Below are positions 2,500-62,716 of a stretch of DNA of 64,000 nucleotides, one piece after another (position 1 is the first letter of the stretch; each line of letters opens with the position of its first letter). Origin of the DNA: a virus. Below the pieces are notes generated by a model that saw nothing but the letters and a program-made list of their open reading frames with translations, did no database searches and was not told where the DNA came from. Made by a program: the position numbers and the translations under genes. The stretch lies in IMG/VR virus record IMGVR_UViG_3300033565_000026, positions 1-64,000 of that record; one strand, 5' to 3'.

Positions 2500-2511
2500 G
2501 ATGGAGGGTAA

Positions 2512-2937
2512 ATGAAAAGAATTTACCACCCTTATACTTTATGGGAAGAATATGGAGCTGGAATGTGGAGATCAGTTTCGAAGGAAGATGAAGAAAGTTA
2601 TATACAAAAGGCTATAGAATTTACTGGAAATTATGAATTATATGGAAAATGGATGTTAAAAGTTATAGAGACGTGGAAATATTCATGTGAACATAATCTT
2701 ACAGATACAAGCATTAATAGACAGGCGTGGGTAGGTCACGCAGCATGTTGTTTAGCGATTGGATGCCCTGAACACATCACAAGAAGGGCGTGGCACTTTC
2801 TCACACAAGAACAGCAAGATAAAGCAAATAAAAAAGCTGATGAAGCTATATTAAGATGGGAGAACAAACAAAATGAAAAAATACCTCAAGGAAAATGTAT
2901 TAGAAGCAGCACAAAACAGGGTATCCTGGGCATTTGA
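2512..2937 (+). CDS. Hypothetical protein, Trp/Cys-rich
   Basis: 141 aa, preceded by GGAGGG, and containing HAACCLAIGCPEH. It sits between the ParB-like gene and the second PAPS reductase and overlaps the next gene by 65 nt. Confidence 0.55.
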   Translation: MKRIYHPYTLWEEYGAGMWRSVSKEDEESYIQKAIEFTGNYELYGKWMLKVIETWKYSCEHNLTDTSINRQAWVGHAACCLAIGCPEHITRRAWHFLTQEQQDKANKKADEAILRWENKQNEKIPQGKCIRSSTKQGILGI

Positions 2938-16740: not shown

Positions 16741-17970
16741 GTGGAATTATCAAGGAAAATAAGCCAATTCTATTCTAAACCCTCGGTGTTCAGAGACAAA
16801 GACGTATTAAAAAAAGGGCATCATCCACAGTCATTAGATGAAGTCCTTCACAGAGATGAAGTAATTAATAAATATGTAACTGTTTTACAGGAAGCTATCA
16901 AAGGGAAAGTTCCAGATAACCTGTTTATATATGGAACATTTGGAACTGGAAAAACGATGTTAGCGAGATTGATTACGTCTGAGATAGCTATGGCCGCAGA
17001 ACAGTTAGGAAATAGTGTAATTCCAATTTATATCTATTGCGAAACTGTGAGTGCTCCAAGCCCTCTAATGCAGTTTATTAATCAATCTATCATAGAAAAA
17101 CTACATGGAGTTAATAAACTTGTAGGAATATCGAAAGCCAAAAACTTTGATTATTTTTATGAATTGGTAGAAGAGGCAAAAGTGCCAATTATACTTATTT
17201 TTGATGAAATTGACAAACTCAAAGAACCTGACATTATAAATCAAATTTCGAGAATAAAGGAGTGTGGATTTACAAAACGCAATGTTTGTATTATCGGAAT
17301 AACCAACGACACTAATTTTTATAATAATCTTAATGGAAGGACAAAAAGCATAATAGGACAGAATGAATTATTTGTGCCTCCTTATGATGCGGATGAGCTT
17401 ATAGATATCTTGAATTTACGAGCTAAACAGGCATTTATAAACGACTCATTAGATGAAGTTGTAATTCCCCTATGTGCTGCTTTTGGTGCTCAAGAGAATG
17501 GGGATGCTAGGACAGCAATAGATCTACTCAGGACAGCCGGTGACCTCGCAGATCAAAGAGATAGTAGGATAGTAGAAGAATGTGACGTGAGAGCCGCAAA
17601 AGGCGGGATGGAATTAAACAGACAGCTTGAAGTTGTAAAAGGCTTGCCCACTCAAACAAAAAGCGTTCTTTTGGCATGTCTCTTAAAATATAAGAAAACT
17701 GGAAATGCATTAGAGACTAATGAGGTATATCCAATATACTCAAAAATATGCGAGATAACTTCATTAGATCCCGTTAAAACGAGGAGATTTAATGATTACA
17801 TAGGGGAATTAAACACACTAGGAATTATGTCCGTAAACAAGATCTCAAGAGGGAGGAAGAAAGGAGTTTACAACGCAATCAGACTGCTTGTAGAAACAGA
17901 TTCATTAGAAGAGATTATATTGCAGGATGATAGGTTTGAAGGATTTAGAAGAGGGAAAGATGAACTCTGA
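16741..17970 (+). CDS. cdc6: Orc1/Cdc6 replication initiator
   Basis: 409 aa with a GTG start after AGGTGAAAAC. It has Walker A GTFGTGKT, Walker B ILIFDEID and sensor-like GITND. The GDARTAIDLLR motif and a C-terminal winged-helix segment are typical of archaeal Orc1/Cdc6. Confidence 0.9.
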   Translation: MELSRKISQFYSKPSVFRDKDVLKKGHHPQSLDEVLHRDEVINKYVTVLQEAIKGKVPDNLFIYGTFGTGKTMLARLITSEIAMAAEQLGNSVIPIYIYCETVSAPSPLMQFINQSIIEKLHGVNKLVGISKAKNFDYFYELVEEAKVPIILIFDEIDKLKEPDIINQISRIKECGFTKRNVCIIGITNDTNFYNNLNGRTKSIIGQNELFVPPYDADELIDILNLRAKQAFINDSLDEVVIPLCAAFGAQENGDARTAIDLLRTAGDLADQRDSRIVEECDVRAAKGGMELNRQLEVVKGLPTQTKSVLLACLLKYKKTGNALETNEVYPIYSKICEITSLDPVKTRRFNDYIGELNTLGIMSVNKISRGRKKGVYNAIRLLVETDSLEEIILQDDRFEGFRRGKDEL

Positions 17971-19276: not shown

Positions 19277-21880
19277 TTAATAAACCTCCATTTGATCTGC
19301 AACCGTTTCAAACCGATCTGAATTTACGGTTTCACGGTTTTGTAATTCATCTCTAATGAGTTCTAATTTACGAAGGAGTTTACCCCCCTGTGGAACCACA
19401 TAACAAGCAGCCCTAGACTTTAACATCTCGGTACATGTTGCACCTGCTCCGGTGAAAATAATATTCTTATAACCGGCATCCTCTGCACGGTCTTTCTTTT
19501 CATCGAAGTCTAATGTTCCATGTGTGTCTTGCCCTTCAAATTCCAGGCATCCAGAGTTATCAGGATCAATTAAGTTTCCATTCAGGCCTACTTCTCCCCA
19601 TGTAATATCGGCTAAATCATTGTGGTGGATCTGGAGGTTAGGGAAACAGCCCCACTGTTTCATTTTTCCGTATATAGCACATACAGCGCAGTAATGTTTC
19701 CAGCCCTCAACGCCTATTAAGTCCTGCTTTTTCTTCCCGTTCTTCGTTGTTCCCTCTACTTTCTTCACCTTCGAGGACTTCACCCATGCACTAATAGAAC
19801 CCGAACCGAAAGGATCAGTCGGATTATAATTTGCATATGCAGAAAGGTCTGCTTTACTAAAGTTTTCTACCCAGTAATCTATAAAGAATTCCTCGGTTTC
19901 TACGAAATCACGGAGAGTTTCTTCAATGATTAAACCGCTTTGAGTTGACGCTTTTTTAACGGTCATTTTGTTCTTTCCTAAGAGGGCATCTTCTACCATA
20001 TCCTCTAAAACTACATCCATATTTATTGCATAAGGATGTTTTAAGAAAAGACATATGCCCCGCCCTTCCTCCAGCAGCCTCTCCCTATGTTCTTCCTTGA
20101 GGCTGAACACTTTATTAAACATATCAATTACAGAGTCCTTTAAGTTGCAGAGCAGGAATATGTTTGAACAGTTTGCTTTGATGAAATTAAGAGTATCAAT
20201 TCCGATCCCTTCGGGATCCTGTGTTGCAAAGATTGTAGTAATGAACGCACTCCTTGATTCTCGGAACATCTTTTCAATAAAAGGCTTTAGATTGTCTATT
20301 TTAAGGAGTTTAGCGCCTTCATCGAAAAATACATCTGTCCTTCTCTGTTCTACGTCCTCGGAGGAAAAGAACCGAGTGTTAATTATGCCCATCATAAGCA
20401 CGCTAAAGGCGTTCTGGAGGTTCAAAGATAGAGCAGATATATCTAATATAAGAAGGTCGTTATCAAGCTCTGGCGCGTTGTGGTTGTCTATCCAGTTAAG
20501 AGCGCATCCCTCAGTAGCTTCTATTGTGTCATATAAGAGAGCATTTAATGTAGGGTTAAATTTTGCAGTATTCAGGCCATCAATATAAGAATACCATTCT
20601 CCGAAGGAAGGCCATTCATCAGGATCAGCCCACTTATCAAGGTTTATTGCTCTTCCTTTCTTATCAACAAGTTCATGTTTTCGGTAAAGGTCCGCGAGAG
20701 TTTTTATAAACATTCCTTTTTTACGGCCTTTGAATGAGAGTCCAATCCATCCAGCCATAAAGCCTTTCAGGGTTTCATAGTGGTCTAATAGAGCTTTATC
20801 GTATGAATCCTGAGACGTACCCATCGTTTTAGGGTCATAAAATACCTGAAATGGATTAAAAGCATATTCAGGCATTCTAAGATGTTTCCCTTCAAACACA
20901 TTACAGAAGTTCTTATAATCAGTCCCTCCGCTTTTTTCATCTTTTGGCTGGAGGATAATAACCCTATGTCCTTTTGCCAAAGCTCTTGCCGCCCAAGTAC
21001 ATTCAAAAACCGTTTTACCGCTTCCGGTTTTCCCCATTATAAAGCTATGTCCCGCATCCTCTAAATTAAAATCCACTTTTACGGGTTTTCCAGTATCATC
21101 AATTCCAAGAATTATTCCGTCTTCAGGATATTGAGGATTAATAGCTCTGAGGGGCATCATTTTTGAAACTGTTTTCCCTGCAGTTGGTTGCAGTACATCA
21201 GGATCTATAAAGTTCGTTGGAAGGATGGATTTTATAACTCTTAATTGTCCATGCCTGGGGATTTCATATCTTATACCGCACTCTTCAAGAGTTCCTATGA
21301 TAGTATCAATAAGGGAATCAACATCTTTTTGAGTTTTCCCAAAAACCGCAGCGCATAACCCATAATTATAATAGTGATCTCTTCCATGAAATACGTTAGC
21401 TGTTGCCTTCTGTAATTCCTGGCCGTTCAGGCTGTTATACTGAGAGTTGATAGTCTGCTGTTCCCCGTTCTTCTGTTGCTCTTTTGACTGTTCAGTCTTT
21501 TCAATGGACTTCCCTAACATCTCAGCTTCTACGAGTGGATTGAGAGGAACCATTATATGCCCATAAATTATAGCAGCGTTTTCAGTTGCCGATATTTTAA
21601 TTAATTCGTCAACTGCTTTATCTGAAAAATCTTCATCATACCCCTTTCTTATATCCTGTCTCTTCGTTGTTTTCCCTATAATGAGAGCTTGCCCCCACAT
21701 CTTATTTACTTTTACATACCATCCATCCTTCGTGGCTTCGATGTCAGCAGGACACGCTAAAAATGAAAGGGTTTGAGTTCTCGCGGTCTTCCGGTCTAAC
21801 TGCTCTTTCTCCATCTGTTTTATTTCTCTCTCAACCTTCCAGCATTTCAATTTGTAATAGTTATTTAAAAAGAAATTCAC
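19277..21880 (-). CDS. VirB4/TrbE-like secretion ATPase with a C-terminal nuclease-like extension
   Basis: 867 aa. An N-terminal domain of about 270 aa precedes Walker A FIMGKTGSGKT, followed by VFFDEGAKLL and TTIFATQDP. The C-terminal 200 aa or so (EGWKHY..DLADITW..CLEFEGQ) shows a weak E..D..ExE/Q PD-(D/E)XK-like pattern. Membrane-protein genes are co-oriented upstream. Confidence 0.6.
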   Translation of the reverse strand: MNFFLNNYYKLKCWKVEREIKQMEKEQLDRKTARTQTLSFLACPADIEATKDGWYVKVNKMWGQALIIGKTTKRQDIRKGYDEDFSDKAVDELIKISATENAAIIYGHIMVPLNPLVEAEMLGKSIEKTEQSKEQQKNGEQQTINSQYNSLNGQELQKATANVFHGRDHYYNYGLCAAVFGKTQKDVDSLIDTIIGTLEECGIRYEIPRHGQLRVIKSILPTNFIDPDVLQPTAGKTVSKMMPLRAINPQYPEDGIILGIDDTGKPVKVDFNLEDAGHSFIMGKTGSGKTVFECTWAARALAKGHRVIILQPKDEKSGGTDYKNFCNVFEGKHLRMPEYAFNPFQVFYDPKTMGTSQDSYDKALLDHYETLKGFMAGWIGLSFKGRKKGMFIKTLADLYRKHELVDKKGRAINLDKWADPDEWPSFGEWYSYIDGLNTAKFNPTLNALLYDTIEATEGCALNWIDNHNAPELDNDLLILDISALSLNLQNAFSVLMMGIINTRFFSSEDVEQRRTDVFFDEGAKLLKIDNLKPFIEKMFRESRSAFITTIFATQDPEGIGIDTLNFIKANCSNIFLLCNLKDSVIDMFNKVFSLKEEHRERLLEEGRGICLFLKHPYAINMDVVLEDMVEDALLGKNKMTVKKASTQSGLIIEETLRDFVETEEFFIDYWVENFSKADLSAYANYNPTDPFGSGSISAWVKSSKVKKVEGTTKNGKKKQDLIGVEGWKHYCAVCAIYGKMKQWGCFPNLQIHHNDLADITWGEVGLNGNLIDPDNSGCLEFEGQDTHGTLDFDEKKDRAEDAGYKNIIFTGAGATCTEMLKSRAACYVVPQGGKLLRKLELIRDELQNRETVNSDRFETVADQMEVY

Positions 21881-24441: not shown

Positions 24442-26256
24442 TTAGAAAGTAAATCTCAAAACATACAAACAGTATATAAAACAGATAAGTAAAATAACGG
24501 CAGCGTATTTGATTATTGGCTTAAATAACCCCTTATGTGGTTCAATTACTTTAATATCCATCGTAGGTTTAAAGCTGCCTTCGGGAGTGTTGCAGGTTAT
24601 TTTTATTTCATCAGGATCTACAAGGCCATCTAAATGAAAAGAATCTCCTGAGTGATATATTTCCCCTTCCCACAATGAACAGTTTGTATATATTACCGAT
24701 CTTCCCTGTTTTTCTCCAATCATAAGAGTGTGGAGTCCATTTTCCCCCTCAACTGATACTTCAACGCTTGTAAGCCCGTTAGAAGGTATATTGATAAGCG
24801 TATAAGGGTTACTATAATTATATTGTTCAATCGTTCCGGTGGCCTCCAACTGGCTTGCATCAACTCCAGAAGGTAAGATTATAGTATCATTCTCCTCTGC
24901 CTGCTCTACGAAATCCATTTTAAAAATATCAAAGATATTATCAAATTCTGTTGCTGATTGATCGGCCTCTTCTATCTCCTTATCTGAGAGAGGTTCAAAC
25001 CCGCCTGGAACATCCATTTCTGACGGCACAACTTCAGGACAACTCCACTCTTTACCGTTCCATGACCAACCCGAAGGGGTGCTCTGCTCTTTTGGATTTA
25101 TAAATATATCAGAATCAGAGAGCTTGCAGCCGTAAACGTTCCCCCCTACGTTATTATAATAACAGTTTTGAGAGCTTTCAACCTCTTGTTTTGAGATTGT
25201 ATTCTCAACTCCGAACCCTCCCTTTCCGGTTAGTTGGCTCGGTTTCGCGTTAGTGAATATATTAGCTGTTAGTTCTGCATCTGCGTATGTAGCCCATCCA
25301 GAATTAACAGCAAAAAAAACAACTGAGCCTCGGTAACATGAATCAAAAACGTTATTTTCAATTTTTGTATTATCATAACCGGAAGCAATTATTCCCCCTA
25401 CCCATGAAATACGATTATCCCCGCAATTCATAAAGAGATTATGATGCAACCATAACTCTTCATTACCTGAAGCTTTTCCAACCAACCAAAGCCCAGGACA
25501 GCAGGAAGATAATATAACATTTCCACAGACTTCTATATCTTCCATTGTACCTGTGTCATGCTGTATCTGGATAGCTGGACCTGCATCTCTCGGACCTTCC
25601 CACGAAATGATATTATTATAGATTCTTGCATGATTAACGTCTAAGAGTCTACACGCTGAATTAACAAGAGTCTTGATATTGTTGTGATGTACTTTAATAC
25701 CTGAAGATCTGAGAGCGAAGAAAACGTCATGTCCTCCCATTTCTCCGGTATTATACGAGAATTCTATGTTTTTGCAGCCGGATAGTCTCAGCCCATCCCC
25801 TAAATTATCATTAAAAGCGCATTTCGTAACCTTAATATTCTCACAATTTATTAAATATATAAAAGTCCCTATCTGGTTTCCATACGCTTTTTTGCCGCTC
25901 TGCTCAGGATGATTCGGGTTTGAATATCGAAGTGCGTACTTCTGATGATCCTGATTCCCCTCAAATCTAATCCCTGATATATTAATATTCTTTTGAGTTT
26001 TACCTGAGATCATAGGGATATTTTGAGGGATGCCGCATTCATCAGCGAACTTAAAAATAGTGCCTTTCTGCCCGCGTAATTCAATATTAGAAGGAAGTTC
26101 AAAAGAATTACTTATAGAGTATGTTTTAGCTTCCAATTCTATTATTTTATTACCATCTCCGCATAAACGAACAATTTCTTTTTCATCTCCTGCAAGAGCA
26201 TGACCCGATAACAAACATAATACTAATATTATAATAAAAGATCTTCTTAAATGCAT
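24442..26256 (-). CDS. Secreted right-handed beta-helix protein with a C-terminal membrane anchor
   Basis: 604 aa with a signal peptide and a C-terminal hydrophobic helix (AAVILLICFIYCLYVL). It has repeated N-x-I/V..N/G beta-helix turns and GDGLRLSG..MGGHDVFF. It is clearly paralogous to 31943-33298. Confidence 0.65.
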   Translation of the reverse strand: MHLRRSFIIILVLCLLSGHALAGDEKEIVRLCGDGNKIIELEAKTYSISNSFELPSNIELRGQKGTIFKFADECGIPQNIPMISGKTQKNINISGIRFEGNQDHQKYALRYSNPNHPEQSGKKAYGNQIGTFIYLINCENIKVTKCAFNDNLGDGLRLSGCKNIEFSYNTGEMGGHDVFFALRSSGIKVHHNNIKTLVNSACRLLDVNHARIYNNIISWEGPRDAGPAIQIQHDTGTMEDIEVCGNVILSSCCPGLWLVGKASGNEELWLHHNLFMNCGDNRISWVGGIIASGYDNTKIENNVFDSCYRGSVVFFAVNSGWATYADAELTANIFTNAKPSQLTGKGGFGVENTISKQEVESSQNCYYNNVGGNVYGCKLSDSDIFINPKEQSTPSGWSWNGKEWSCPEVVPSEMDVPGGFEPLSDKEIEEADQSATEFDNIFDIFKMDFVEQAEENDTIILPSGVDASQLEATGTIEQYNYSNPYTLINIPSNGLTSVEVSVEGENGLHTLMIGEKQGRSVIYTNCSLWEGEIYHSGDSFHLDGLVDPDEIKITCNTPEGSFKPTMDIKVIEPHKGLFKPIIKYAAVILLICFIYCLYVLRFTF

Positions 26257-29633: not shown

Positions 29634-30470
29634 TTAAGTCTTAATCACATTATTTTTTAAAATAGCTCCCTGGACACTTATTCCTGGAGACTTACACTTT
29701 TCAATTATATTCTCTTTTATGAGAACATTACTCATTTTTGTATTTAATCCAATTATTCCAGGATAAGGTAAGCCTCTAATCTTATTTCCTTCTATTGTAA
29801 TATCTTTTAAACTCCCTTGTAATTGTAATCCTGTATAACCTCCTCCTGAAGTTACACAAGAATTATAAGAGAACTCTCCTTTATCAACATTATAAAATCT
29901 ACATGAAGAGTTTGTTCTATTTATAAATACAGAATTATATACTGAGATATTAGAGCAATCATAACAATAAATACCGTCATGTCCACACTTATTTACTGTG
30001 ATTCCATCTATGAGAACATTAGAACAGTCATGGAGTAAAACAGCATCATTGCAGCCATTTTTAAAAGTGCAGTCCTCAATAGTTAATCCTGAAACACCTA
30101 TAAAATTACACATATTAAATTGAGATGTGCCTAATTTTACATCTGGATAATAATCTGCTTGACTTCCATCAATGGTAATCCCACTTAGCTTAATATCCTT
30201 TACAGATGCGTTTCTACTCATTAACATTGCTTTTTCTTCTAAGATTGAACATTTAGGATATCCCCATTTAGAAAGCCCTTTAACGAGCTTTAAAATAGCT
30301 CCACCTTGTAAAATAGTATGTGAAGGGAATAATAGAGAATCTTTAATAGAATATATCTGATTTTCTTCTAGCTCAACGACTCCGGCATGACTTAAAGCCT
30401 GGTTCAACTCCTTTGACGTAATGCCTTTGTATGTACGTTTTTTGCCATCATTACCGTGAGCTATTATCAT
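29634..30470 (-). CDS. Beta-helix protein without a signal peptide
   Basis: 278 aa with repeated turns (CNDAVLLHDCSNVLIDGITVNKCGHDGIYCYDCSNISVYNSVF) and no N-terminal hydrophobic segment. Confidence 0.6.
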   Translation of the reverse strand: MIIAHGNDGKKRTYKGITSKELNQALSHAGVVELEENQIYSIKDSLLFPSHTILQGGAILKLVKGLSKWGYPKCSILEEKAMLMSRNASVKDIKLSGITIDGSQADYYPDVKLGTSQFNMCNFIGVSGLTIEDCTFKNGCNDAVLLHDCSNVLIDGITVNKCGHDGIYCYDCSNISVYNSVFINRTNSSCRFYNVDKGEFSYNSCVTSGGGYTGLQLQGSLKDITIEGNKIRGLPYPGIIGLNTKMSNVLIKENIIEKCKSPGISVQGAILKNNVIKT

Positions 30471-31942: not shown

Positions 31943-33298
31943 TTACCTCCTGTAAATCTTATAATCGGTAGTTAGTGCCTTTGTTAGTTCTGGAAGATGT
32001 CTTTCGAAACAGGAAATTAATACTTTAGTTTCATTATCCATGGTATCAGTAAAACAGCCTAATCCATGGTATCTACATGGACTGTTATCTTGCAGGTGGT
32101 AATCTCCGTTTCCTTTGTACCATGGATCAATATTATATTCGCTCTGAACAGTCACAGCATAATTATTGTTAGTATTACCATGGTAACAATTTTCAGAGCA
32201 TACCACAGTATTTCTATTGCCTGTTAGATTGGCGATTGCTGAACCTGAAGCAGTTCCTTTATAGTTACTTTCTTTCGTGTTAGTTACTATATTTCTTGTT
32301 ACCGTGGATTTTAAGCCTACCAATATACTTGATGTCTGCCAACCAGAAAACACAATTCCATAGCCCATACACTTATCAAAAGTATTATTTTCAATGTTAG
32401 CGTCAAATCCGTCAATACAGATTCCCCCCACATCATCAGTCTTGATGGCAGCAGGCTCAAGCCCACAATTCACGGAAAGGTTATTGTGAATGTTGATATT
32501 GTTCTGCCCCGCCGTACCTATAACCCACATTGCAGGACCAAACGAATCAGAAAGAGAATTCTCAAATACTTCAATATCCTGGCAATTCCAATTTTCAGCA
32601 GTATTTTGCACCTGAATAAGTGGGCCTGTATTTCCTTTCGTGCCTCTTAATTTACAGTTATGGATTCTTCCATTTATAACAGAACGAAAACGGACAGCCG
32701 CATTAACTTCAGTATCAATATCAAGCTCCGAGACATCTACATTTCTCGCACCTGCAACACATACAACGTCATGCCCTCCTCTACTTCCTGTTATTCGCTT
32801 GATAGTGATATCCTGCCCGCCCTCAATGCGGATTCCATCGCCTAGATTATTTCTAAAATCAATATTTTCAAAAGAGCATTTAGAAGAATTTGTATATTTT
32901 ACACTGCCTAACGAACCTAACATAAAAAAATTATGATAGCCTTGCCCCCATTGCTTGGATGCTTCTTTTCCTGAATGTCCGTTCCAGCCAGGTACGAACT
33001 TCTGATAGTCTCTATTCCCTTCAAATTTGAGATTTTTAAATGTTAACTTTTCAGCAGAAGAGGGATTCTTAGGAGCAATAAGAGGGATTTGCAGCCCAAA
33101 GGGTTTTAGAGGTGCATTCTCCATTAGGGTAAACTTACAGCCTTGCCCATCCCATTCAGTATTATTATAAACTCTAATAAGTGAATTGATCTCAATGTCT
33201 GGAGTGTCAAAAATGTATTTAGCTGGAGTATTTCCAATAGAATTTATTAATTTTTGTAGTTTTTGAGAATCATCTATAGTAACGGTTACCGTTTTCAT
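31943..33298 (-). CDS. Beta-helix protein without a signal peptide (paralog of 24442-26256)
   Basis: Start set at ATG 33298, which lies 6 nt after the GGAG of TCGGAGCTATAT. GDGIRIEG..RGGHDVVC..GPLIQVQ..IHNNL aligns with GDGLRLSG..MGGHDVFF..GPAIQIQ..LHHNL. Confidence 0.65.
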   Translation of the reverse strand: MKTVTVTIDDSQKLQKLINSIGNTPAKYIFDTPDIEINSLIRVYNNTEWDGQGCKFTLMENAPLKPFGLQIPLIAPKNPSSAEKLTFKNLKFEGNRDYQKFVPGWNGHSGKEASKQWGQGYHNFFMLGSLGSVKYTNSSKCSFENIDFRNNLGDGIRIEGGQDITIKRITGSRGGHDVVCVAGARNVDVSELDIDTEVNAAVRFRSVINGRIHNCKLRGTKGNTGPLIQVQNTAENWNCQDIEVFENSLSDSFGPAMWVIGTAGQNNINIHNNLSVNCGLEPAAIKTDDVGGICIDGFDANIENNTFDKCMGYGIVFSGWQTSSILVGLKSTVTRNIVTNTKESNYKGTASGSAIANLTGNRNTVVCSENCYHGNTNNNYAVTVQSEYNIDPWYKGNGDYHLQDNSPCRYHGLGCFTDTMDNETKVLISCFERHLPELTKALTTDYKIYRR

Positions 33299-33430
33299 AT
33301 ATAGCTCCGATTTGGGCAACCTTGCCGATAAAGAAAAAGTTGAATATAAAATATAAAGATAAAGATATATTTAGATATATCTAATTAAAAAAGTGAATAA
33401 GTTTTTATAAAAAAGAAGAATTTTAAAAGT

Positions 33431-39330: not shown

Positions 39331-39571
39331 TTGTCTTACGCTCCTATTTGCTTATTGCATACTATAATACGCACATGTTATATTTATACTTTACTGTGGT
39401 ACTATAAATACAACGACAGAGTGAATATAGATACAGTAATTTTCGCAGAAACAAACATTAAAAAAATAGAGGTTGAACAGGCAGGAGAGAAAGATGATAA
39501 AAGAACCTGCCTGCTGGATGTGAGTCTTGAGATCCAATTAAAACAATGTTAAATTAGTATAAAAAGTTAAT

Positions 39572-39650
39572 CTCTCAGTCACGAATTGAACGTGATCATA
39601 CCCCCTGCCATCTCGGACAGGTGGCCAGTCTGCCATTAGCTTACTGAGAG
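39572..39650 (-). ncRNA. tRNA-like element (non-canonical)
   Basis: On the minus strand there is a perfect 7-bp acceptor-like stem (CTCTCAG/CTGAGAG). A T-arm-like TCACG-TTCAATT-CGTGA directly abuts the 3' acceptor strand. A D-loop-like AATGGCA is present. However, the element is 79 nt, starts with C, the anticodon stem has a mismatch, and loop position 33 is G (UGUCCGA). Confidence 0.25.
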
Positions 39651-43345: not shown

Positions 43346-45793
43346 GTGGGTGGAATGGGCTTTAGAAAAATATTATTTATTTTATTTTTATTATTGTTAT
43401 GTGTTGGTGGTGCTGGAGCATATCAACTTTCTATCCTTAATCCAAATTTCGCAACTCAACCAAACGGGACAGATTGGAGCGAAGTTGGATCAAGCGGTAG
43501 AACCTGGAATCAAACAGACGGATCTAGCGATACATATTCATACGAACTAACCAGAACGTCAACAGATGTAGATTTTTATTCGGGTTATATCCCTGTAAAT
43601 CCATCCACAAACTATTCTCTATCTTATTACTCAAAAAAATATTCTGGGGCTGGATACGACCGGGTATATATACTACAATTTAATGGCACTAATCAGGTCA
43701 CTATGGGGTATAATCAGACCGCAGGATTACATGCATGGGCGCAAAAACATGTAAATTTTACGACTAGCTCAAACGTAAATCAGATAAAAATAAGAGGAGT
43801 ACACGCTACCGATAACGGTATATCACTATTTGATAATTTTGTACTTACAACTCCATCAGATACTACACAATGGGATATATATGACGCTCAGACATTAACT
43901 GGACAAACAAGATATTATAATGCTAATATTACAGTTTATCCAGGCGGTTCATTAACTCTTGTGAATTCAAGTCTTATATTTGATAATACTGTTAGCGGGG
44001 AACACGGTATAAAAGTTCTTAAGGGGAATACAACATCTACAACGGCTGGAAAACTTGTAGTTTCAAATTCAACTATCACAGGCAATTCTAATTATCACAC
44101 TTATATTTGGTCTGAATATTATGAACCTATAGGCTCAAAAACTCCTATAATCCAGGCAGACGATTCTATTTTTGAGTATATGGGAGTTGAAATAACATCC
44201 CCAACGTGGACTGTTGCAAATAACCAATCATGGAGAACAGGAATAGAGATCCATAGCTCAAATCCTTCTACATATTTTGATAACTGCTCAATCAAACACT
44301 GTTACAATGGACTGTGGTTTTCAACGGGTGGGAGTCCTGCAAATGTAACAAATTGTACTATAGACGATATTGAGTCTGCCGCGATAAAAACAAATTCAGT
44401 TGGGCTAAACATCCTAAACAACAATATAAATAATTCAAGATTTTGTGTTTATGCTCAATATACAAATGGTATGAATATAATTAATAATACATTCAGTGCA
44501 GGTTCTAGGGCATCTGGTTCTTATTGTATAGATATTTTAGGCAATCCTAATTTATATGCCGAAATGGATAGATATTTTAATATTTCTAATAATATAATTA
44601 CAGGTGTTCAACGTTCTATAGTCCTCAATGTAGGTACAAGGGACGGACTTGTAAAAAATAACACCATTTCAAACGCCACTGGCGTAGGCGTTGGGATGGG
44701 TGACAAGGCTTATAATATCACAGTCGATGGAAACAGATTTACAGATGTACAGGACGCGGTATTAGCAACATATGAAAATATAACTGTAACTAATAATATT
44801 GTAACAAACCCCTGGATTCCTACAGGCTACACGGCGGCCTTTAGATGCGAAGAGCTACGCAATAGTACATTTTACAATAATACAGTAACTAACGTAGATC
44901 AAACAACTACAAAAGGAATTTATATTTATGATTCTATAAATGTAACTTTTGATAAATGTTCGTTTTCGTCTATGCCTACAGCAATTGATTTACATGCAAA
45001 TAACACTAATATATTTTTCAGAGATACTGTTATTACAGAATCTACCACAGACGTGAATATGGCTGGAACTGAAGAAAACGTTAAATTTTTAAATCCGTCA
45101 TATAATATATCAAAAGTTTCAGTATCAGATACAGGCACGTTCAAATCATATTACTATGCCAACATCTTTGTAAAAAATTTGCTAGATCAACCTGTAAAAA
45201 ATGCGGTAATCGCGTCTAACGAATCCTCGATAGATCAAAACGGTAATACTATAGAATCTGAATTATCAACAGTCGATGGAGATACAACAAATCTTTTTGC
45301 AGTTCTATCAGATGAAAAAACGAGTTCCGCGACTACATCACATACCCCGTTATTGACAGCTACAAAAAACGGAATAAATGACACTGAAACGGCAACACCT
45401 TCTGTTTCTTGGTACTCTTCAGACACAAACTCACTTTCTGGATCTCAGATACCATTGGTACTTGATACATGGGGAGCAGTCCCACCAGTTTCAGCATTTT
45501 CTGCAACTCCTAGAAGCGGTCAAGCATCAACAATTATTTCGTTTACAGATAGTTCATCTGGCGCGGATTCATGGGCATGGGACTTTGAAAATGATGGTTC
45601 GATAGACTCGGTAGAACAAAACCCAACACACGCTTATACTTCAGCAGGAACTAATACAGTCAATTTGACCGTATCAAACGAGTTCGGCAGCGATTCCGAA
45701 GTTAAATCAGAGTATATTACAATTTCAGCCAACTCCGGCACAGATCCTTTAATGTGGCTCGTATGGTGGTTTAAATCTCATAGGTTGTGGTAA
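43346..45793 (+). CDS. Secreted CBM-like / beta-helix / PKD-domain protein, very rich in N-x-S/T sequons
   Basis: 815 aa with an N-terminal hydrophobic signal. It has a jelly-roll-like N-domain and long beta-helix repeats. The C-terminal PKD-like segment reads FSATPRSG..ISFTDSS..WAWDFENDGS..NPTHAYTSAGTNTVNLTVSN. The extreme C-terminus is hydrophobic. Confidence 0.7.
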   Translation: MGGMGFRKILFILFLLLLCVGGAGAYQLSILNPNFATQPNGTDWSEVGSSGRTWNQTDGSSDTYSYELTRTSTDVDFYSGYIPVNPSTNYSLSYYSKKYSGAGYDRVYILQFNGTNQVTMGYNQTAGLHAWAQKHVNFTTSSNVNQIKIRGVHATDNGISLFDNFVLTTPSDTTQWDIYDAQTLTGQTRYYNANITVYPGGSLTLVNSSLIFDNTVSGEHGIKVLKGNTTSTTAGKLVVSNSTITGNSNYHTYIWSEYYEPIGSKTPIIQADDSIFEYMGVEITSPTWTVANNQSWRTGIEIHSSNPSTYFDNCSIKHCYNGLWFSTGGSPANVTNCTIDDIESAAIKTNSVGLNILNNNINNSRFCVYAQYTNGMNIINNTFSAGSRASGSYCIDILGNPNLYAEMDRYFNISNNIITGVQRSIVLNVGTRDGLVKNNTISNATGVGVGMGDKAYNITVDGNRFTDVQDAVLATYENITVTNNIVTNPWIPTGYTAAFRCEELRNSTFYNNTVTNVDQTTTKGIYIYDSINVTFDKCSFSSMPTAIDLHANNTNIFFRDTVITESTTDVNMAGTEENVKFLNPSYNISKVSVSDTGTFKSYYYANIFVKNLLDQPVKNAVIASNESSIDQNGNTIESELSTVDGDTTNLFAVLSDEKTSSATTSHTPLLTATKNGINDTETATPSVSWYSSDTNSLSGSQIPLVLDTWGAVPPVSAFSATPRSGQASTIISFTDSSSGADSWAWDFENDGSIDSVEQNPTHAYTSAGTNTVNLTVSNEFGSDSEVKSEYITISANSGTDPLMWLVWWFKSHRLW

Positions 45794-52020: not shown

Positions 52021-55000
52021 ATGACAGTTCAAACGATTTATGTAACGTATTCCGGGGGGTCAATGGATGGCACTCATTATACGGCAGATGGCACTAATGA
52101 CCAAGACGCTATTAATAGTGCTTTGAATCTTGCAAGTGCCAACCCGGGGTCTACTGTAATAATGCGAGGGCCCCACACATATAATATTAGAGATCAAATC
52201 AAAGTTGGATCATCAACTACATGGACTGCTGAATCAGGAGTAATACTAAAAGTTCCAGATTATGCTTGTGGAGGGAGCGTGACTTATGGAACATCTGGGG
52301 CTTGGTGTGCTTTTCCAGATGGGTCTGGAGTTATTACAAAATTAACTACTACTGTAACGGGCATTGAAATATATGGTTTCGAGATTGACGGAAATTGTCA
52401 GCACCAATATACGAAACTGGGGCTGGCACACGGAACGCCTTCTTCTGCTGGTTCAGGAGTAGAGAGGCTTATTCAATTTCAAGGGAGTTCTGGATATGAG
52501 TGTCAGGATATTAATATCCATGACATGAATATCCATGACGCTTTCGGGGAAGCGTTACAGGTTACATTTTGTAAAAATGTTAGATTTCACGATAATATAT
52601 GCAGTAACCACCAACATGAAGGAGTTTATTATAAAGCAATAACCGGAAGCGGAAACGCAATTTATAACAATTCCATAGCCGGAATAACTAGCGGTTGTAT
52701 TCGTTGTGATTCATGCCAGAATGTCAATATTTATGATAATGACTGTACTTCTTATGATGGACCCAATAATAACGGAGCACCTAAATTTGGTCATTCTGGA
52801 ATGCAGATCGCAAATAACGCTTCTTATTCAATCCTTACAAATAATATTAATGTTTATAATAATACCATTTCAGGTCCGAATGTCGCGGGCATCTGGATGA
52901 ATGATGTCAAGAAGACAGCCGGGACAAATGCACAGACTGTCAATATATATAATAATACAATTAATAATGGATGTGGTTGGGCTTCTTGGGCTTATTGGAG
53001 TGCAGGAATTGGCATTCAGTGGGGTAATGGTCTTACTATAGAATACAATGATTTTGATGGCTGTTACTGTCATACAATATTGATTTATGGAAATATCACG
53101 TCCTCGGCAACTTCTATAAAAATTAATAATAATAATATAAAAAACACTCGTGCTAATAGGGATGGAACTACACCCACTGACGGGAGTACACCTAAATATA
53201 CAACCCCTGTTGGGTATGGGATTTGTAATGTAAAATCCACAACAGTCACGGCTGCCATATCATATACTTATTTTTCCGGAAATCTAAAAGGTCCAATTTA
53301 TCCTACAAATTTAATTCATACTAACGATGTTACTACCCTAAACGGATTAAAACCTGGAACTTCTACAGGTGGAAGTACAGGGGGAGGGAGTACAGGAGGT
53401 GGGACAACTGGAGATGTACTTCCAGAAATTCCCGTCAGGTACATCCCCCAAAATAGAGCAGTTAGAGAATCTTTAGCGGAATATTTCTTAAGAGATTATA
53501 CAGTCTATGACGAAAATAATAGAGAGATTACAGCCTATATAAATCAGTATCCTTTAAGAATTGTAGGATTCTCCAAAAAGACTACTAAAGTGATAGCTTC
53601 AAACAAGCCTCCTGGTATTGATGGCGTAAATTTGGGAGACTTCGGTTTTGAAGGTGGATCTTTTACTGTTACATGTAGGGTAAGCTCCTTAGACGATGCG
53701 TGGCAGCAAATTTCAGCTTGGAAGCGGAGAAGTCCGGCTATTCTTGAGCCTGGTGGAGTTTATTCAGGTTGGTTCCTCTCAGGAATAATGACTACTCCTG
53801 AATCTGATATCAGGTTTAATTCTGAAGAAGTACCCGAAAGAGGGTTTACATATACAGTTCAGTTTGAAACTGATACACCATTTTTTAGAAGTACTACCGA
53901 AAGAATAAGAAGTCGAAAAATAACAAATAGTTTGCAATGGTCTGCTGATGACATATATACAGGAAATCAGTTATCAAATCCTTCTTTAGAATCGTGGCTC
54001 GCGGGAATGGAAGACGTAGCGCCGGATAGATGGAATTATGAAACTGCTGGAATGCAGATGTCAGGAGAAACCGCACATGATGGAGCCAACAGCGTACTAA
54101 TTACAGGAAACGGGACTGATGCAGATAGAGGAAGCTTTTCTCAGCCTGTCAAATTAGAAGCAGGCTTTAGTTATCTTCTATCTGCATATGGTGCGGTTTC
54201 AGGACTCACACAAGGGCAATTAGTTGTTGAGCTTGAAGCAGGCGGAGGGGTTGTATCTCAATTAGTTTGGGATGACGTGATGGATTGGTATCAGCAACAG
54301 ATTATAATCACGCCTTCCCTAAATATGTATGATGCAGTCGTAAGAGTACACCTGATAGGAACCGCTAACGCTGAAGCTCTTGTTTATTGTGACGATATGT
54401 ACTTTGGGAGAATGGCAGATATTGAAATTGCTGCATTAGGGAACAGTATTCAGACACTCGGATATGAAGACGCGATTCCTGATTTTGAAGTGAGTGCGGT
54501 CCAGATGTCGAACGTAACTTCCTCAACTGAAACGGCAGGAGTCCAGGCAACAAATGTAAATAATGGAGCAAGTACGGCAAATTCGTATAGTACAACTTAT
54601 ACAACTTGGAGACTTGTTTTGACTACATCACTTCCTCAACTATCGGGAGGAGGAAAATACAGAATAGATCAAGTTTCGTGTACCCTCGCGGCTTATGTGG
54701 ATACGACTTACAAAGCATATTTAGAGCCTAGGTTATATGCTCCTTCTCTGAATGGAGGAGTAGAGCAGGCATTGGCTACCGGATGGGAAACCACTTCATT
54801 AACAGCCGTTGCTTTTTCTGAGGATATTACAGGCAAGACCTCAGCAAATGAAGCCATTGAAATAAGATGGTATGCAAAAGTTGAAAATAATTCAAATGGA
54901 CATAAAGCAGTCCCTAAATTATTAACCGTCAAATATACACCCCTCACAACATCAACAGCATATAGTTATGTCGCGGGAACTCAAGTAGTGACCACAAGAG

Positions 55001-56052
55001 ATGACGAAGACGCGACAAATGCTACATCTTTCACAGCATTATATACTCAAACTATTCCAGCACTCTCAAATAATGCTACGTGTAGGCTGGATGGATTATC
55101 TGCACAATTAGCTGTTAGTGTTAGCGGGAACACGGCAACTATGCAAGTAACGGCTCAGGCTACGGGCTGGCAGGGAGGGGCTGAAACTGTAATTGTAGGT
55201 CCCTGGGCTGCAACTTCTGTAGATCCGAGTTTTACAACGAAATCATCAGTTAGCAGCCAAACTAATTTTGGGAACGGCCCGGTTACAATAAAATGGTATC
55301 TCAAAAGCACTACTGGGACTGATGCGTCTTGCAGAAATATGACTATTAAATACACCCCGATGATTCCACAGAGCGCACCTGATCTAGATGCCGGAAGCGC
55401 AACTATTTCAATCTATAATGTGGATGATCCAACAGTCGTTCTTGATATGTGTAATACTTTATTACCTAAATGTAAATTCGCAATCAATAGCGATTATTCA
55501 GGCTCTTTTGAAATGTCAGAGGATTTTTCTGATAATCTATACAGTTCTATAATTACAGATAATGGGTCCACAACTCCGGTTTATTCAGCAGCGAATAGAA
55601 CTTTAGAACTTCCAGCAGGATCATATTTAACATATCTTTTTGACACTAAATATTCAGTTACCGGAAAGCCATTTATTCAAGTTTTTGTGGTGTCAGGTAT
55701 CCCTCAGATGTGGATTGCAGACTATGACCCAATAACAAAGGGACCTGTTGAATGGTATGCAGCAGACAGCAACACGGCAACAGCATTAGAGGACACGGCA
55801 ATTTATAGAGAGCTTGATAACGCTGCCAATCTTTCCCTCGCTGGAAAATCAAAATATTTCGTCTGTATAAAACCACCCACGAGTGGAACTTGCACAATCG
55901 GCTCTATTTATCATTATGCTGATCTAGTTACTATGGATGCTCCGAGACCTAAAATTTTCGCAAATGGTGGTGTAAATACTTTTGCAGCGATCTTAAACGG
56001 GAATCCTTGTATCGTCACAATTAGGTATCGGGATACTAACATGGTGATCTAA
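52021..56052 (+). CDS. Giant distal-tail (Dit-like) fusion protein
   Basis: 1343 aa in four parts: an N-terminal beta-helix domain, a GGSTGGGSTGGGTTG linker (53355-53412), a Dit-like segment (YPLRIVGFSKK..LGDFGFEGGSFTVTC) with a CBM-like insertion, and two tandem domains of about 140 aa each. The tandem domains end in IRWYAK..LTVKYTPL and IKWYLK..MTIKYTPM. Confidence 0.6.
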   Translation: MTVQTIYVTYSGGSMDGTHYTADGTNDQDAINSALNLASANPGSTVIMRGPHTYNIRDQIKVGSSTTWTAESGVILKVPDYACGGSVTYGTSGAWCAFPDGSGVITKLTTTVTGIEIYGFEIDGNCQHQYTKLGLAHGTPSSAGSGVERLIQFQGSSGYECQDINIHDMNIHDAFGEALQVTFCKNVRFHDNICSNHQHEGVYYKAITGSGNAIYNNSIAGITSGCIRCDSCQNVNIYDNDCTSYDGPNNNGAPKFGHSGMQIANNASYSILTNNINVYNNTISGPNVAGIWMNDVKKTAGTNAQTVNIYNNTINNGCGWASWAYWSAGIGIQWGNGLTIEYNDFDGCYCHTILIYGNITSSATSIKINNNNIKNTRANRDGTTPTDGSTPKYTTPVGYGICNVKSTTVTAAISYTYFSGNLKGPIYPTNLIHTNDVTTLNGLKPGTSTGGSTGGGSTGGGTTGDVLPEIPVRYIPQNRAVRESLAEYFLRDYTVYDENNREITAYINQYPLRIVGFSKKTTKVIASNKPPGIDGVNLGDFGFEGGSFTVTCRVSSLDDAWQQISAWKRRSPAILEPGGVYSGWFLSGIMTTPESDIRFNSEEVPERGFTYTVQFETDTPFFRSTTERIRSRKITNSLQWSADDIYTGNQLSNPSLESWLAGMEDVAPDRWNYETAGMQMSGETAHDGANSVLITGNGTDADRGSFSQPVKLEAGFSYLLSAYGAVSGLTQGQLVVELEAGGGVVSQLVWDDVMDWYQQQIIITPSLNMYDAVVRVHLIGTANAEALVYCDDMYFGRMADIEIAALGNSIQTLGYEDAIPDFEVSAVQMSNVTSSTETAGVQATNVNNGASTANSYSTTYTTWRLVLTTSLPQLSGGGKYRIDQVSCTLAAYVDTTYKAYLEPRLYAPSLNGGVEQALATGWETTSLTAVAFSEDITGKTSANEAIEIRWYAKVENNSNGHKAVPKLLTVKYTPLTTSTAYSYVAGTQVVTTRDDEDATNATSFTALYTQTIPALSNNATCRLDGLSAQLAVSVSGNTATMQVTAQATGWQGGAETVIVGPWAATSVDPSFTTKSSVSSQTNFGNGPVTIKWYLKSTTGTDASCRNMTIKYTPMIPQSAPDLDAGSATISIYNVDDPTVVLDMCNTLLPKCKFAINSDYSGSFEMSEDFSDNLYSSIITDNGSTTPVYSAANRTLELPAGSYLTYLFDTKYSVTGKPFIQVFVVSGIPQMWIADYDPITKGPVEWYAADSNTATALEDTAIYRELDNAANLSLAGKSKYFVCIKPPTSGTCTIGSIYHYADLVTMDAPRPKIFANGGVNTFAAILNGNPCIVTIRYRDTNMVI

Positions 56053-57728: not shown

Positions 57729-58400
57729 ATGAAAAAAATAATCCCTCTCTTAATACTCTTTATATTTCTGATAAGCTCGGCATCAGCCGCAACTCTAACA
57801 GTAGGCTCAACGGCTAAATACAAGACTATTCAATCTGCTGTTAATGCAGCCGCTAACGGTGATACAATTTACGTTAACGCCGGAACTTACAACGAACTTG
57901 TAAACGTCAATACAAAAATGCTGACATTTCAAGGGCAAAAAATAGGAACTGTTTACAAGTATCCAAAAGTTAACGGTTTTTCCTTTGGTGTTGGATCTAA
58001 ACCAGGAGAAGCGGGCGCAGGAAATATAAACGGATTCAACGTCACAAAATACGGAATAGATTATCAGCTAATTGGTGGGAATACTGTAAGAAATAATTAT
58101 ATCTATACAAAGGGAGTGTATTGCAGAGGCGCAACCTGCTCAAATAATACAATCATAAATAATAAATTTTATAATTGTGGCATTTCGCTATATGAATCTA
58201 GTCTGAATTCAATAACAGGAAATACAATTTCTAAAGCTTCCGTAGGATTGGGAATGTATGAAGGTTCTTCCTGCACGACAATTACAGGGAATACCTTTTC
58301 GTGTTGTAGTGTTGGGGTTGCATGTTGGGATATTCCATCAATTTTAGTAGGGAATGTGTATAAAGGTAATACTGTAAATATCAAAACTGGAGTTTATTAA
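57729..58400 (+). CDS. Secreted small beta-helix protein
   Basis: 223 aa with the signal peptide MKKIIPLLILFIFLISSASA. It has GDTIYVNAGTY and repeated N-N-x-I/F turns. Confidence 0.6.
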   Translation: MKKIIPLLILFIFLISSASAATLTVGSTAKYKTIQSAVNAAANGDTIYVNAGTYNELVNVNTKMLTFQGQKIGTVYKYPKVNGFSFGVGSKPGEAGAGNINGFNVTKYGIDYQLIGGNTVRNNYIYTKGVYCRGATCSNNTIINNKFYNCGISLYESSLNSITGNTISKASVGLGMYEGSSCTTITGNTFSCCSVGVACWDIPSILVGNVYKGNTVNIKTGVY

Positions 58401-60672: not shown

Positions 60673-60864
60673 ATGTATGAAGTTTTTGAATGTCTTCGAT
60701 GTTGTAATGTATTTAGTATGACAGATGAAGAACGAATTGCATTTTGCAAATCAGGAAGATCAACGATAACGTGTCCTAAATGTGGGTGTTATGGAATTGA
60801 GATATTGACTTGTATCGAGACTAGCAAAATAATAAAAAACGTTAGAAGTATTAATCCTCAATAA
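60673..60864 (+). CDS. Zinc-ribbon protein
   Basis: 63 aa with CLRCC..CPKCGC. Confidence 0.55.
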   Translation: MYEVFECLRCCNVFSMTDEERIAFCKSGRSTITCPKCGCYGIEILTCIETSKIIKNVRSINPQ

Positions 60865-61333
60865 TAAAACATCCTTCCTGCAAAGCATACTTCTCCCCCA
60901 CAAAAACATATCCATTTTTGTTAACTATCCCGGGAACACAAACTTTCTTTTTTGTGACTGCATTAGAAGCTTTCAAGTGCGTTTCTATTGGCTCTTGAAT
61001 AACTTCCTCTTTGATAGTAGTGTCGATTTGTTCAGAAGGCTCTATAATAACCTCTTCTTCCTGCTCAATAATTTCTTCTTGTGATTCTTCTATATCTTCT
61101 TCTGGCTCACTTTTTAACGTTTGATTCTCAAGAGCTTGAGTATAGCCATTATCCTCTTCAATGGGAACCTATTCTATAGTCTCTTCTGTTGTATTATTTG
61201 TTTCATTCGGAGTAGTTACGGTCTCATTAATTACAGTTGAATTATTAATTTCTGGAGTAGTAGCCATTGAAATGATGGCACATACTAAAAAACAAGCAGC
61301 ACCAACAATAAAAAAGTAAGTTAGCTTTTCCAT
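60851..61333 (-). CDS. Signal-peptide protein with an in-frame TAG (codon 55)
   Basis: ATG 61333 follows AAGGTG. The hydrophobic N-terminus is followed by an N-x-T-rich stretch and a TAG at 61169-61171. A further 105 in-frame codons, with no ATG and only late GTG/TTG codons, run to TAA at 60851-60853. I checked this codon by codon. Confidence 0.5.
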
Positions 61334-61356
61334 AAAAACACCTTAAAAAAAGAAAA

Positions 61357-61773
61357 TTAGTTGGTTCTTGTTGAAACCAACTTACCTTGAGAATTATAAA
61401 TTTTTGCTGTTTCACCTTTGCAGGATAAAATTGCTCCGTTTGTACCGAGCGAATAAGCACCTGGGACTTTTCCTGTATAGATCCATATACTCTTGCAGGA
61501 TTTGAGAGTTACAGCAGGAAGATTATAACGAACTTCCTTAGAACACCCTGCGCACTTCAGGCCAACTTTCCATCCCTTTAAATTAACAGGAGAATAAAGT
61601 CCATTAGTGATCTTGATATATTCCTTTCCTGAACATTGCATGTAAGAAACGCATACAGTTTTTGAACACGTTGAACATGATTTACAACTCGATCCTGAAC
61701 ATGCTGCCATAGAAGGAGATACGAAGGACAGCATTAGCATAGCTCCGATTAATAAAATTAGATATTTTTTCAT
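61357..61773 (-). CDS. Secreted Cys-rich protein with a lamin-tail-domain-like segment
   Basis: 138 aa with a signal peptide and CSGSSCKSCSTCSKTVC. EYIKITN..VNLKGWKV..LKSCKSIWIYTG..GETAKIYNSQGKLV fits the LTD pattern. Confidence 0.5.
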   Translation of the reverse strand: MKKYLILLIGAMLMLSFVSPSMAACSGSSCKSCSTCSKTVCVSYMQCSGKEYIKITNGLYSPVNLKGWKVGLKCAGCSKEVRYNLPAVTLKSCKSIWIYTGKVPGAYSLGTNGAILSCKGETAKIYNSQGKLVSTRTN

Positions 61774-62198: not shown

Positions 62199-62540
62199 TT
62201 ATAGTTTAATTATATCTTTAATCTGTTTTAACTTTTCAGTAGACAAGCTATTAAATTTAATTTTAGATATATAATTAAGTAATTCTAATCTTATCCCCGC
62301 TTCTAAAACCTCATCTGTAATCTTAACTAGACAATCACTAATACCCATACTCATTCTTGAATCCCCTCTCGGGAGTCTGCCATCTCTAAACTTCTCAAGA
62401 TATCCAGATACTTTAATTTGGCGAGTAGGAGTTATCTTCTCAATAGTTACTATAGTATATGATTTAGTGCCGTAATAGTTATGTTCTACTGCAACTTTAT
62501 CACCATCTTTTAAAGAGGAGAGCCATTCATTATCTGTCAT
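62199..62540 (-). CDS. Hypothetical protein
   Basis: 113 aa. The start overlaps the upstream stop (TAATG). Confidence 0.55.
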   Translation of the reverse strand: MTDNEWLSSLKDGDKVAVEHNYYGTKSYTIVTIEKITPTRQIKVSGYLEKFRDGRLPRGDSRMSMGISDCLVKITDEVLEAGIRLELLNYISKIKFNSLSTEKLKQIKDIIKL

Positions 62541-62716
62541 TATTCATCCGCCTTCTTTATAAAAAGATATACCTCTCTTCCTGCGTACTCTTCCCCTACT
62601 GCCGGAATTCTCCCTTGAGAATCAACTTTTCCGATAAATCCTTTTGAGAAGGATTCAGGGCGTATGGTAATATCAGGGATTAGAGGGAGATCATTAAGGT
62701 TTTTTCGGCGGGGCAT
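62540..62716 (-). CDS. AbrB/SpoVT-like small protein (58 aa)
   Basis: GKVDSQGRIPAVGEEYAGREVYLFIKK fits the swapped-hairpin pattern. The ATG lies directly after the upstream TAA. Below the track cut-off. Confidence 0.45.
   Translation of the reverse strand: MPRRKNLNDLPLIPDITIRPESFSKGFIGKVDSQGRIPAVGEEYAGREVYLFIKKADE

Follow-up and report, generated by a model that had tools for sequence, protein, structure and literature searches.

A tailed archaeal virus from a metagenome carries a minus-strand gene of 160 codons that is interrupted, at codon 55, by an in-frame TAG. In our view the best explanation, to which we assign a probability of roughly 0.6, is that this TAG is a neutral singleton that is really read through as pyrrolysine (Pyl) by the host. 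What carries this reading is that the two sides of the codon form one gene, that the part beyond it is conserved as coding sequence, that the TAG occurs in this copy only, and that TAG terminators are avoided throughout the 64,000-nt stretch of DNA that was analysed (the window). The host itself is probably a Pyl-decoding methanogen, as judged from gene content and stop-codon use.

Read directly from the sequence, a single minus-strand frame leads from ATG 61333 through the TAG at 61171-61169 to a TAA at 60853-60851, with 54 sense codons before the TAG and 105 sense codons after it. This agrees with what a first, sequence-only reading had described, namely a good start (AAGGTG, then ATG 61333) and a TAG followed by 105 open codons. 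The GGTG of the ribosome-binding motif is kept at the same place in two related loci, L001 and L003. As that reading also held, the downstream part is devoid of ATG over its 105 codons and its alternative starts come late, the first being TTG 60976 at codon 120, which is preceded by no GGAGG- or GGTG-type motif. In the other two frames of the minus strand, this 105-codon interval contains six and nine stops; the probability of meeting zero stops is about 5e-4, and the remaining 97 gene ends in the window are followed in frame by another stop after a median of 10 codons. A codon-usage score trained on the long ORFs of the window is above zero in the target frame only, with values of 0.285 for the N-terminal half and 0.395 for the C-terminal half. 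The openness of these 105 codons is not a product of chance, low complexity or composition. The T-rich tract directly 3' of the TAA looks like an archaeal oligo-T termination signal and might act as a terminator, and, unlike the TAA, the TAG is followed by no such tract. In the public catalogue, the entry for this gene from the source contig is the 54-aa fragment only. The features of the gene and its surroundings are collected in Table 1.

Table 1. Features of the interrupted gene and its immediate surroundings, in window positions.
Feature	Position	Strand	Remarks
Upstream partner, secreted Cys-rich lamin-tail-domain (LTD) protein	61357..61773	minus	Pfam LTD, E 1.5e-8
9-bp hairpin + oligo-T	61359..61382	minus	Overlaps last LTD codons, just upstream of the ribosome-binding site of the interrupted gene
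AAGGTG ribosome-binding motif	61339..61344	minus	5-nt spacer to ATG 61333-61331
Interrupted (target) gene	60851..61333	minus	160 codons including one in-frame TAG
N-terminal hydrophobic helix, residues 1-24	61262..61333	minus	AlphaFold model and family alignment
Sequon-rich stretch, residues 30-49	61187..61246	minus	Six N-x-S/T sites
In-frame TAG, codon 55	61169..61171	minus	In variable, predicted-disordered linker
Motif YTQALENQTL, 9-18 codons 3' of TAG	61115..61144	minus	Translatable by read-through only
C-terminal small beta domain	60854..60952	minus	Family signature V-x-x-x-G-Y-V-x-V-G...V-x-I
Peptides encoded 3' of TAG			VCVPGIVNK, NGYVFVGEK, YALQEGCFIIED
T-rich tract TTTTTTATTATTTT	60824..60839	minus	Directly 3' of the TAA
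Convergent Zn-ribbon gene	60673..60864	plus	14-nt overlap with 3' end of the read-through ORF

The unity of the gene is clearest from its homologues. A word-indexed homology search with the fused protein gave no match, and an exhaustive HMMER search with the fused product over 1.84 billion representative proteins was required. This search retrieved P0001, a protein of 173 aa whose alignment covers residues 1-160 of the fused product (E 9.6e-27), together with the catalogued 54-aa fragment and weaker full-length relatives. A profile search added four further full-length homologues, which brings the total from the two approaches to eight (P0001, P0004-6 and P0011-14), and tblastn found an uninterrupted homologue in a related virus contig (L008:2246-2824). 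About ten homologues are known, all of them from related metagenomic viruses, 145-212 aa long, uninterrupted and of the same layout, and the family is restricted to a group of tailed archaeal viruses. Both halves of the target are colinear with P0001, the N-terminal half corresponding to its residues 1-49 (47% identity, E 2e-13) and the C-terminal half to its residues 65-173 (47% identity, E 1e-24). In the homologue alignment that the sequence-only reading had called for, no protein ends at the TAG site, and the downstream 105 codons are conserved coding sequence. The two halves are, on this comparison, one gene; both chance openness and a reading as two genes were rejected on the evidence of the homologues, and the claim that the downstream part is not an independent gene holds, since the homologues are all single fused proteins.

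The part beyond the TAG has also been kept under constraint. When the target is compared with the L001 gene by the Nei-Gojobori method, dN/dS comes to 0.25 for the part before the TAG and 0.23 for the part after it. The agreement of these values implies that purifying selection has acted equally on the downstream part for almost the whole time since the two genes diverged. The 105 codons past the TAG contain no further stops or frameshifts, and the signs of a decaying pseudogene (extra lesions, relaxed constraint past the TAG) are absent from them, a picture with which a single, very recent mutation would also be compatible. The gene evolves fast all the same, with 47-57% identity to its homologues as against 82-85% for the neighbouring LTD protein and 85% for the capsid protein, and no homologue with more than 60% identity was found.

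The proteins of this family share a clear plan, in which an N-terminal hydrophobic helix ending in (S/T)-M-A is followed by an invariant N-x-T sequon, a variable linker that is acidic or proline-rich and carries a central E-D-x-Y-x-x-A-x-E-x-Q motif, and a C-terminal beta domain of about 35 residues. In an AlphaFold model computed from a nine-sequence alignment, the target has a helix at residues 2-24 (pLDDT 82-90), a disordered region at residues 30-123 (pLDDT <50) within which the TAG lies, and a C-terminal beta domain at residues 128-159 (pLDDT 79-85) with strands at 128-134 and 153-159. The helix (residues 1-24) and the N-x-T-rich stretch (six sequons in residues 30-49) that the first reading had picked out were thus both recovered; the helix is either a signal anchor or a signal peptide with the conserved (S/T)-M-A motif. 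N31 and T33 are invariant across the family, one further sequon (NQT) lies 3' of the TAG, and in the beta domain the family alignment shows an invariant G141 and a nearly invariant G146. The best-conserved motif of the linker is YTQALENQTL, which differs from P0001 at one residue only, and the segment coding for QALENQTL is identical at 22 of 24 nt. From its predicted layout, the target is best described as a putative secreted or membrane-anchored protein, in which an acidic linker leads to a small beta domain at the C-terminus.

Searches with the target family in Pfam, PHROG(s) and NCBIfam returned no known domain, and Foldseek matched the target model to nothing in the PDB at E <=0.001. Two of the homologues are labelled 'TonB' or 'VirB10-like' by JGI, labels that reflect linker composition only. 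We rejected a TonB_C or VirB10 identity, as neither sequence nor fold similarity of the C-terminal domain was found; the likeness to TonB/VirB10-like envelope-spanning proteins is one of overall layout only (an anchor, a long linker and a small C-terminal domain). Elsewhere in the same gene block, an ORF at 62540-62716 (minus strand) encodes a 58-aa product whose C-terminal part, GKVDSQGRIPAVGEEYAGREVYLFIK, is homologous to the beta domain of the target family (hhalign 91.5%, E 8.7e-7), and the block hence contains two copies of this domain, one of them free and the other attached to a membrane anchor.

The target and the LTD gene form a conserved two-gene cassette: in L001 and L003, an LTD gene whose product is 82-85% identical to that of the window lies directly upstream of the target homologue. 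The hairpin at the end of the LTD gene is kept in both loci (L001:~868-891 and L003:~549-572), and one of its pairs is compensatory, being G-C in the window and A-T in L001 and L003 as a result of synonymous changes. It may be an attenuator or a terminator that sets the ratio of the cassette products. The cassette sits in a minus-strand block of small genes; between it and the structural module lie the integrase and a few plus-strand genes (YopX-like and Zn-ribbon) that form a short block. The plan of the protein, with its anchor or signal helix, sequon cluster, long acidic spacer and small domain at the C-terminus, faintly suggests that the target is a surface or envelope-spanning protein working with the secreted LTD protein and, as a speculation, the cassette may act in surface modification or superinfection exclusion.

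The TAG itself is found in this copy only, and none of the roughly ten homologues has a TAG or any other stop at the site. In the closest homologue, it stands opposite a GAT (Asp) by a protein-guided codon alignment with P0001 and opposite a GAA (Glu) by a DNA alignment; in the homologues, this position of the variable linker is occupied by Asp, Glu or gaps. Because the linker is rich in Glu codons, a TAG could easily originate in one step, for example from GAG. Its absence from the homologues indicates that the site is neither ancestral nor functionally required as a Pyl position; it is a substitution specific to this lineage, within a disordered linker. In itself, the codon's identity is weak evidence: 23 of the 72 one-step nonsense routes in the target lead to TAG (about 30%), so that finding this codon favours tolerance only about threefold. 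By tblastn, no in-frame stop was detected in the homologous genes of related loci, no other convincing internal-TAG gene was seen in the window or in related loci, and the gene, its TAG aside, is intact in an otherwise intact virus genome.

No cis or trans element that would specify read-through was found within the window. The PYLIS-like hairpin that had been proposed as a check is absent: the 126 nt starting from the TAG fold at -13 kcal/mol, as against a mean of -16.6 for shuffled sequences (z +1.17). ARAGORN predicted no tRNA with a CUA anticodon in the window, even under relaxed settings, and there is neither an Rfam tRNA match at E <=1 nor a pylT-like sequence. The window is part of a 72,696-bp JGI metagenome contig, of which about 8.7 kb lies outside it. 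As a separate observation, ARAGORN called an 80-nt tRNA-Gly with a TCC anticodon and a G at position 33 (39571-39650, minus strand), which the Rfam tRNA model does not match even at E <=1 and in which the 3' half (T-arm and acceptor) is tRNA-like and the 5' half is not. This element may be a tRNA remnant or an attachment-site relic between two gene blocks. Relaxed ARAGORN settings added one tRNA-Ala-like call only.

In its use of stop codons, the virus clearly avoids TAG, as the sequence-only reading had noticed. Among the non-overlapping ORFs of 90 aa or more, 61 in all, none ends in TAG, and in a codon-score gene model of 97 genes there are 64 TAA, 33 TGA and 0 TAG stops, the TAG of the target being the sole one in any predicted coding frame (~18,000 codons). 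The binomial probability of 0/97 is 0.011 at 4.5% TAG use and 3.6e-5 at 10%. Out of frame, TAG is common in the same genes (442 and 221 occurrences). For comparison, the median proportion of TAG stops is 5.0% in Pyl+ and 22% in Pyl- archaeal genomes and 4.9% in Pyl+ Methanosarcinaceae (bioRxiv 10.1101/2025.06.11.659114), while values of ~4-5% for Methanosarcina and 1.6% for 'Ca. M. alvus' have been reported (PMC4153887). The window shows the strong depletion of TAG terminators relative to TGA and TAA by which a genome adapted to Pyl decoding is defined. The closest relatives, L001-L004, have no TAG stops, and the more distant and GC-richer L005 (46% GC) has two or three, including two adjacent genes ending in TAG at L005:18109-18956. 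TAG avoidance thus seems to vary within the virus group, perhaps with the host.

The window encodes a large terminase, an HK97-type capsid protein, a tail tube protein and a tape measure protein, as well as a tyrosine integrase, a YopX-like protein, a VirB4-like ATPase and an archaeal Orc1/Cdc6 (16741-17970, plus strand). The main clue to the host comes from six beta-helix proteins (24442-26256, 29634-30470 and 31943-33319 on the minus strand; 43346-45793, 52021-56052 and 57729-58400 on the plus strand). Three of them carry the disaggregatase-related domain PF08480, including a 1343-aa tail-fibre-like protein that follows the tape measure protein. Disaggregatase cleaves methanochondroitin, a polymer unique to Methanosarcina (PMC12369344), and the beta-helix proteins are probably depolymerases for the methanochondroitin layer of Methanosarcina. 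Together, the Orc1/Cdc6, the PF08480 proteins and the TAG avoidance lead us to infer that the host is probably a Pyl-decoding methanogen of the Methanosarcina type.

With the LTD or the disaggregatase-like protein as query, no related locus was retrieved from the collection of genome contigs; related-locus searches of viral and metagenome contigs returned nothing, with no longer relative obtained, and assemblies held no exact matches to the window's own proteins. Relatives of the capsid protein at 53-86% identity come from metagenomes only and have neighbouring genes in common. In a phage database, the DNA gave only a short YopX-like match; at the protein level the terminase resembles those of bacterial phages, the capsid protein has a weak match to a Methanobacteriales virus only, and the disaggregatase-like protein has none. 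Several other features of these genomes deserve mention. In L008, an Orc1/Cdc6 gene (L008:697-1941) adjoins the target-family homologue. A VirB4/TraC-like conjugation-type ATPase of 867 aa (19277-21880, minus strand), which is unusual for a head-tail virus, is kept in this group of tailed archaeal viruses (L004:2-2593 and L005:1423-4044) and lies a few kb from the capsid module in relatives. At 208-4123 (plus strand), a ParB-N-domain protein is flanked by two PAPS-reductase/DUF3440 proteins, and with the PD-(D/E)XK nuclease at 4068-4751 the 208-4751 region looks like a phage-type DNA-modification or recombination module.

How, then, would the interrupted gene be expressed? Pyl insertion is a competition with the release factor that requires no cis element (PMC8211752), an amber codon newly arisen in frame is a stable mutation in such a background (Borrel et al., PMC4153887), and Kivenson et al. 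read singleton internal TAGs as neutral Pyl sites (bioRxiv 10.1101/2024.09.30.615893). By the reading that we prefer, one linker codon would have changed to TAG in this virus alone, probably from GAG or another one-step neighbour. The Pyl-tRNA(CUA) of the putative host would compete with the release factor at every UAG, and a cis element would be unneeded. Pyl would sometimes be inserted, giving the full 160-residue protein with Pyl at position 55, and termination would at other times leave a 54-residue stub. In a linker that tolerates change, the Pyl would most likely be carried along neutrally and have no function of its own. Read-through, the option that the sequence-only reading had found the more interesting, accordingly stands as the most plausible one, although the TAG is unconserved in the roughly ten homologues and the Pyl-decoding host is a putative one.

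Its most serious competitor, which we consider unlikely but by no means negligible, is a fresh pseudogene or an assembly or population variant, in which only the 54-residue stub is made and the conservation of the downstream part is inherited from a recently intact ancestor. The consensus sequence from a metagenome could stand for a variant that is in the minority or defective, and what we observe would be the same if the assembly had captured a defective variant or if a nonsense mutation had arisen very recently. That no homologue has a stop at the site, that a gene evolving this fast may be dispensable, that nearly a third of one-step nonsense routes end in TAG and that a dN/dS value from two diverged sequences says nothing on the timing of a recent event all sit well with it. 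It has to contend, however, with the fact that this is the sole interrupted gene seen and that the interrupting codon is exactly the one that never terminates a gene here, as well as with the lack of a second lesion in the downstream codons. Moreover, if the host decodes Pyl, a fresh TAG would be leaky and not a null allele, which means that the read-through and nonsense-mutation readings overlap. The very recent nonsense mutation that the first reading had listed keeps some probability; chance openness of the downstream frame is excluded by its conserved coding sequence.

The other explanations fare less well. An evolved dual output, in which selection keeps the TAG and the ratio of short to full-length product follows the Pyl supply of the host, with up-regulation on methylamines, has parallels in Methanosarcina acetivorans, where the pyl genes are induced on trimethylamine and rdmS, a gene containing UAG, yields truncated and full-length products, with the truncated one alone appearing when Pyl synthesis is deleted (bioRxiv 10.1101/2025.06.11.659114), and the short form would keep the helix and the sequon stretch. 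We nevertheless find it quite improbable, and nothing was found in support of the regulated short and long forms that the first reading had listed: the TAG is present in no homologue, the linker around it is variable and disordered, no structure of PYLIS type or of any other kind follows it, the 54-aa product would contain no conserved elements except the helix and one sequon, and cleavage at the conserved S/T-M-A, if any, would leave a peptide of about 30 residues. Virus-driven recoding, with a virus-encoded suppressor tRNA reading TAG as a standard amino acid late in infection, would account for the window-wide lack of TAG stops, and about 8.7 kb of the source contig lies beyond the window; it is nonetheless very improbable, as there is a single in-frame TAG, with none in structural or lysis-type genes, and the window yields no CUA tRNA or pylT-like sequence. 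We give next to no credence to two genes, a 54-aa membrane peptide ending at the TAG and a separately initiated downstream protein, even though the in-frame TTG 60976 opens a 41-aa ORF that covers the C-terminal domain. The homologues are all fused, the TTG has no ribosome-binding motif, YTQALENQTL and 65 well-scoring codons would be left between the TAG and the TTG, and a secreted or surface domain would be without its targeting helix.

At the other end of the scale, the virus might have fully adopted the expanded code of its host, ending no gene in TAG and carrying at least one Pyl codon, with the full-length envelope-spanning protein depending on the host's Pyl supply. This is unlikely; were it true, the long-to-short ratio would report the metabolic state of the host to the virus, as methylamines induce the pyl genes, and the target would be the first virus protein containing Pyl and the first virus function gated by the 22nd amino acid. 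If the neutral read-through that we favour were confirmed, the target would be a clear example of a Pyl-containing virus protein, and a large tailed virus would be seen to match its stop-codon use to a methanogen host in which UAG is ambiguous or reassigned; knowledge of the Pyl decoding mechanism would be unchanged. There are practical consequences too: standard gene callers split such genes, and TAG avoidance is usable as a host-prediction signal for uncultured archaeal viruses.

In the methylamine methyltransferases MtmB, MtbB and MttB of methanogens, too, an in-frame UAG is read as Pyl, the residue being conserved, catalytic and located in the active site, and a downstream structure, PYLIS, has been proposed for mtmB. 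The TAG of the target, by contrast, is unconserved, falls within a linker and is followed by no such structure (z = +1.17). TAG-recoded bacteriophages of the genetic code 15 type have many in-frame TAGs, mainly in late genes, and usually a suppressor tRNA of their own. The window likewise combines in-frame TAG with an absence of TAG terminators, but it has one such TAG only and no CUA tRNA.

Closer parallels are found among genes for which Pyl appears to be incidental. In the tRNA-His guanylyltransferase (Thg1) of Methanosarcina (cited in PMC8211752), a lineage-restricted TAG likewise stands where homologues have ordinary residues, and it is tolerated as the host reads UAG as Pyl, with no known role for the Pyl residue. 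Thg1, however, is an essential cellular enzyme in which Pyl has been experimentally confirmed, whereas the target is an accessory viral gene with its site in a disordered linker. In RdmS of M. acetivorans, as proposed here for the target, one mRNA gives a truncated and a Pyl-containing full-length product without a cis signal; the two RdmS products were seen by western blot in wild-type and pylBCD-deletion strains, while those of the target are only predicted. Among viruses, the smacoviruses of Methanomassiliicoccales show an avoidance of the amber codon that mirrors their host and has been used for host prediction (PMC6336856). Their genomes consist of 2.5 kb of ssDNA, with TAG making up 4.25% of the stops and no internal TAG on record; the present virus, by contrast, is a dsDNA tailed virus on a contig of ~73 kb with 0/97 TAG stops and one internal TAG.

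The nearest match is provided by the 'Category 1' internal-TAG genes of Pyl-decoding archaea that Kivenson et al. described for their proposed Genetic Code 34, in a preprint that does not mention viruses (bioRxiv 10.1101/2024.09.30.615893). Against the limits used there, the target has >30% identity on both sides of the TAG in one homologue, an extension of 105 codons (>15 aa) and an overlap of 14 nt (<60 nt). Like these genes, it belongs to a genome without TAG-terminated genes and is a singleton of limited phylogenetic range. The 'Category 1' cases come from cellular genomes with demonstrated pyl genes, some with proteomic support, and include transposases and a casposon, whereas the target belongs to a tailed virus from a metagenome, with a putative host and a predicted Pyl. 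The target thus fits a known pattern, that of an internal-TAG gene in a Pyl context, and not a new mechanism; what it adds is that the pattern is seen in a virus that avoids TAG terminators.
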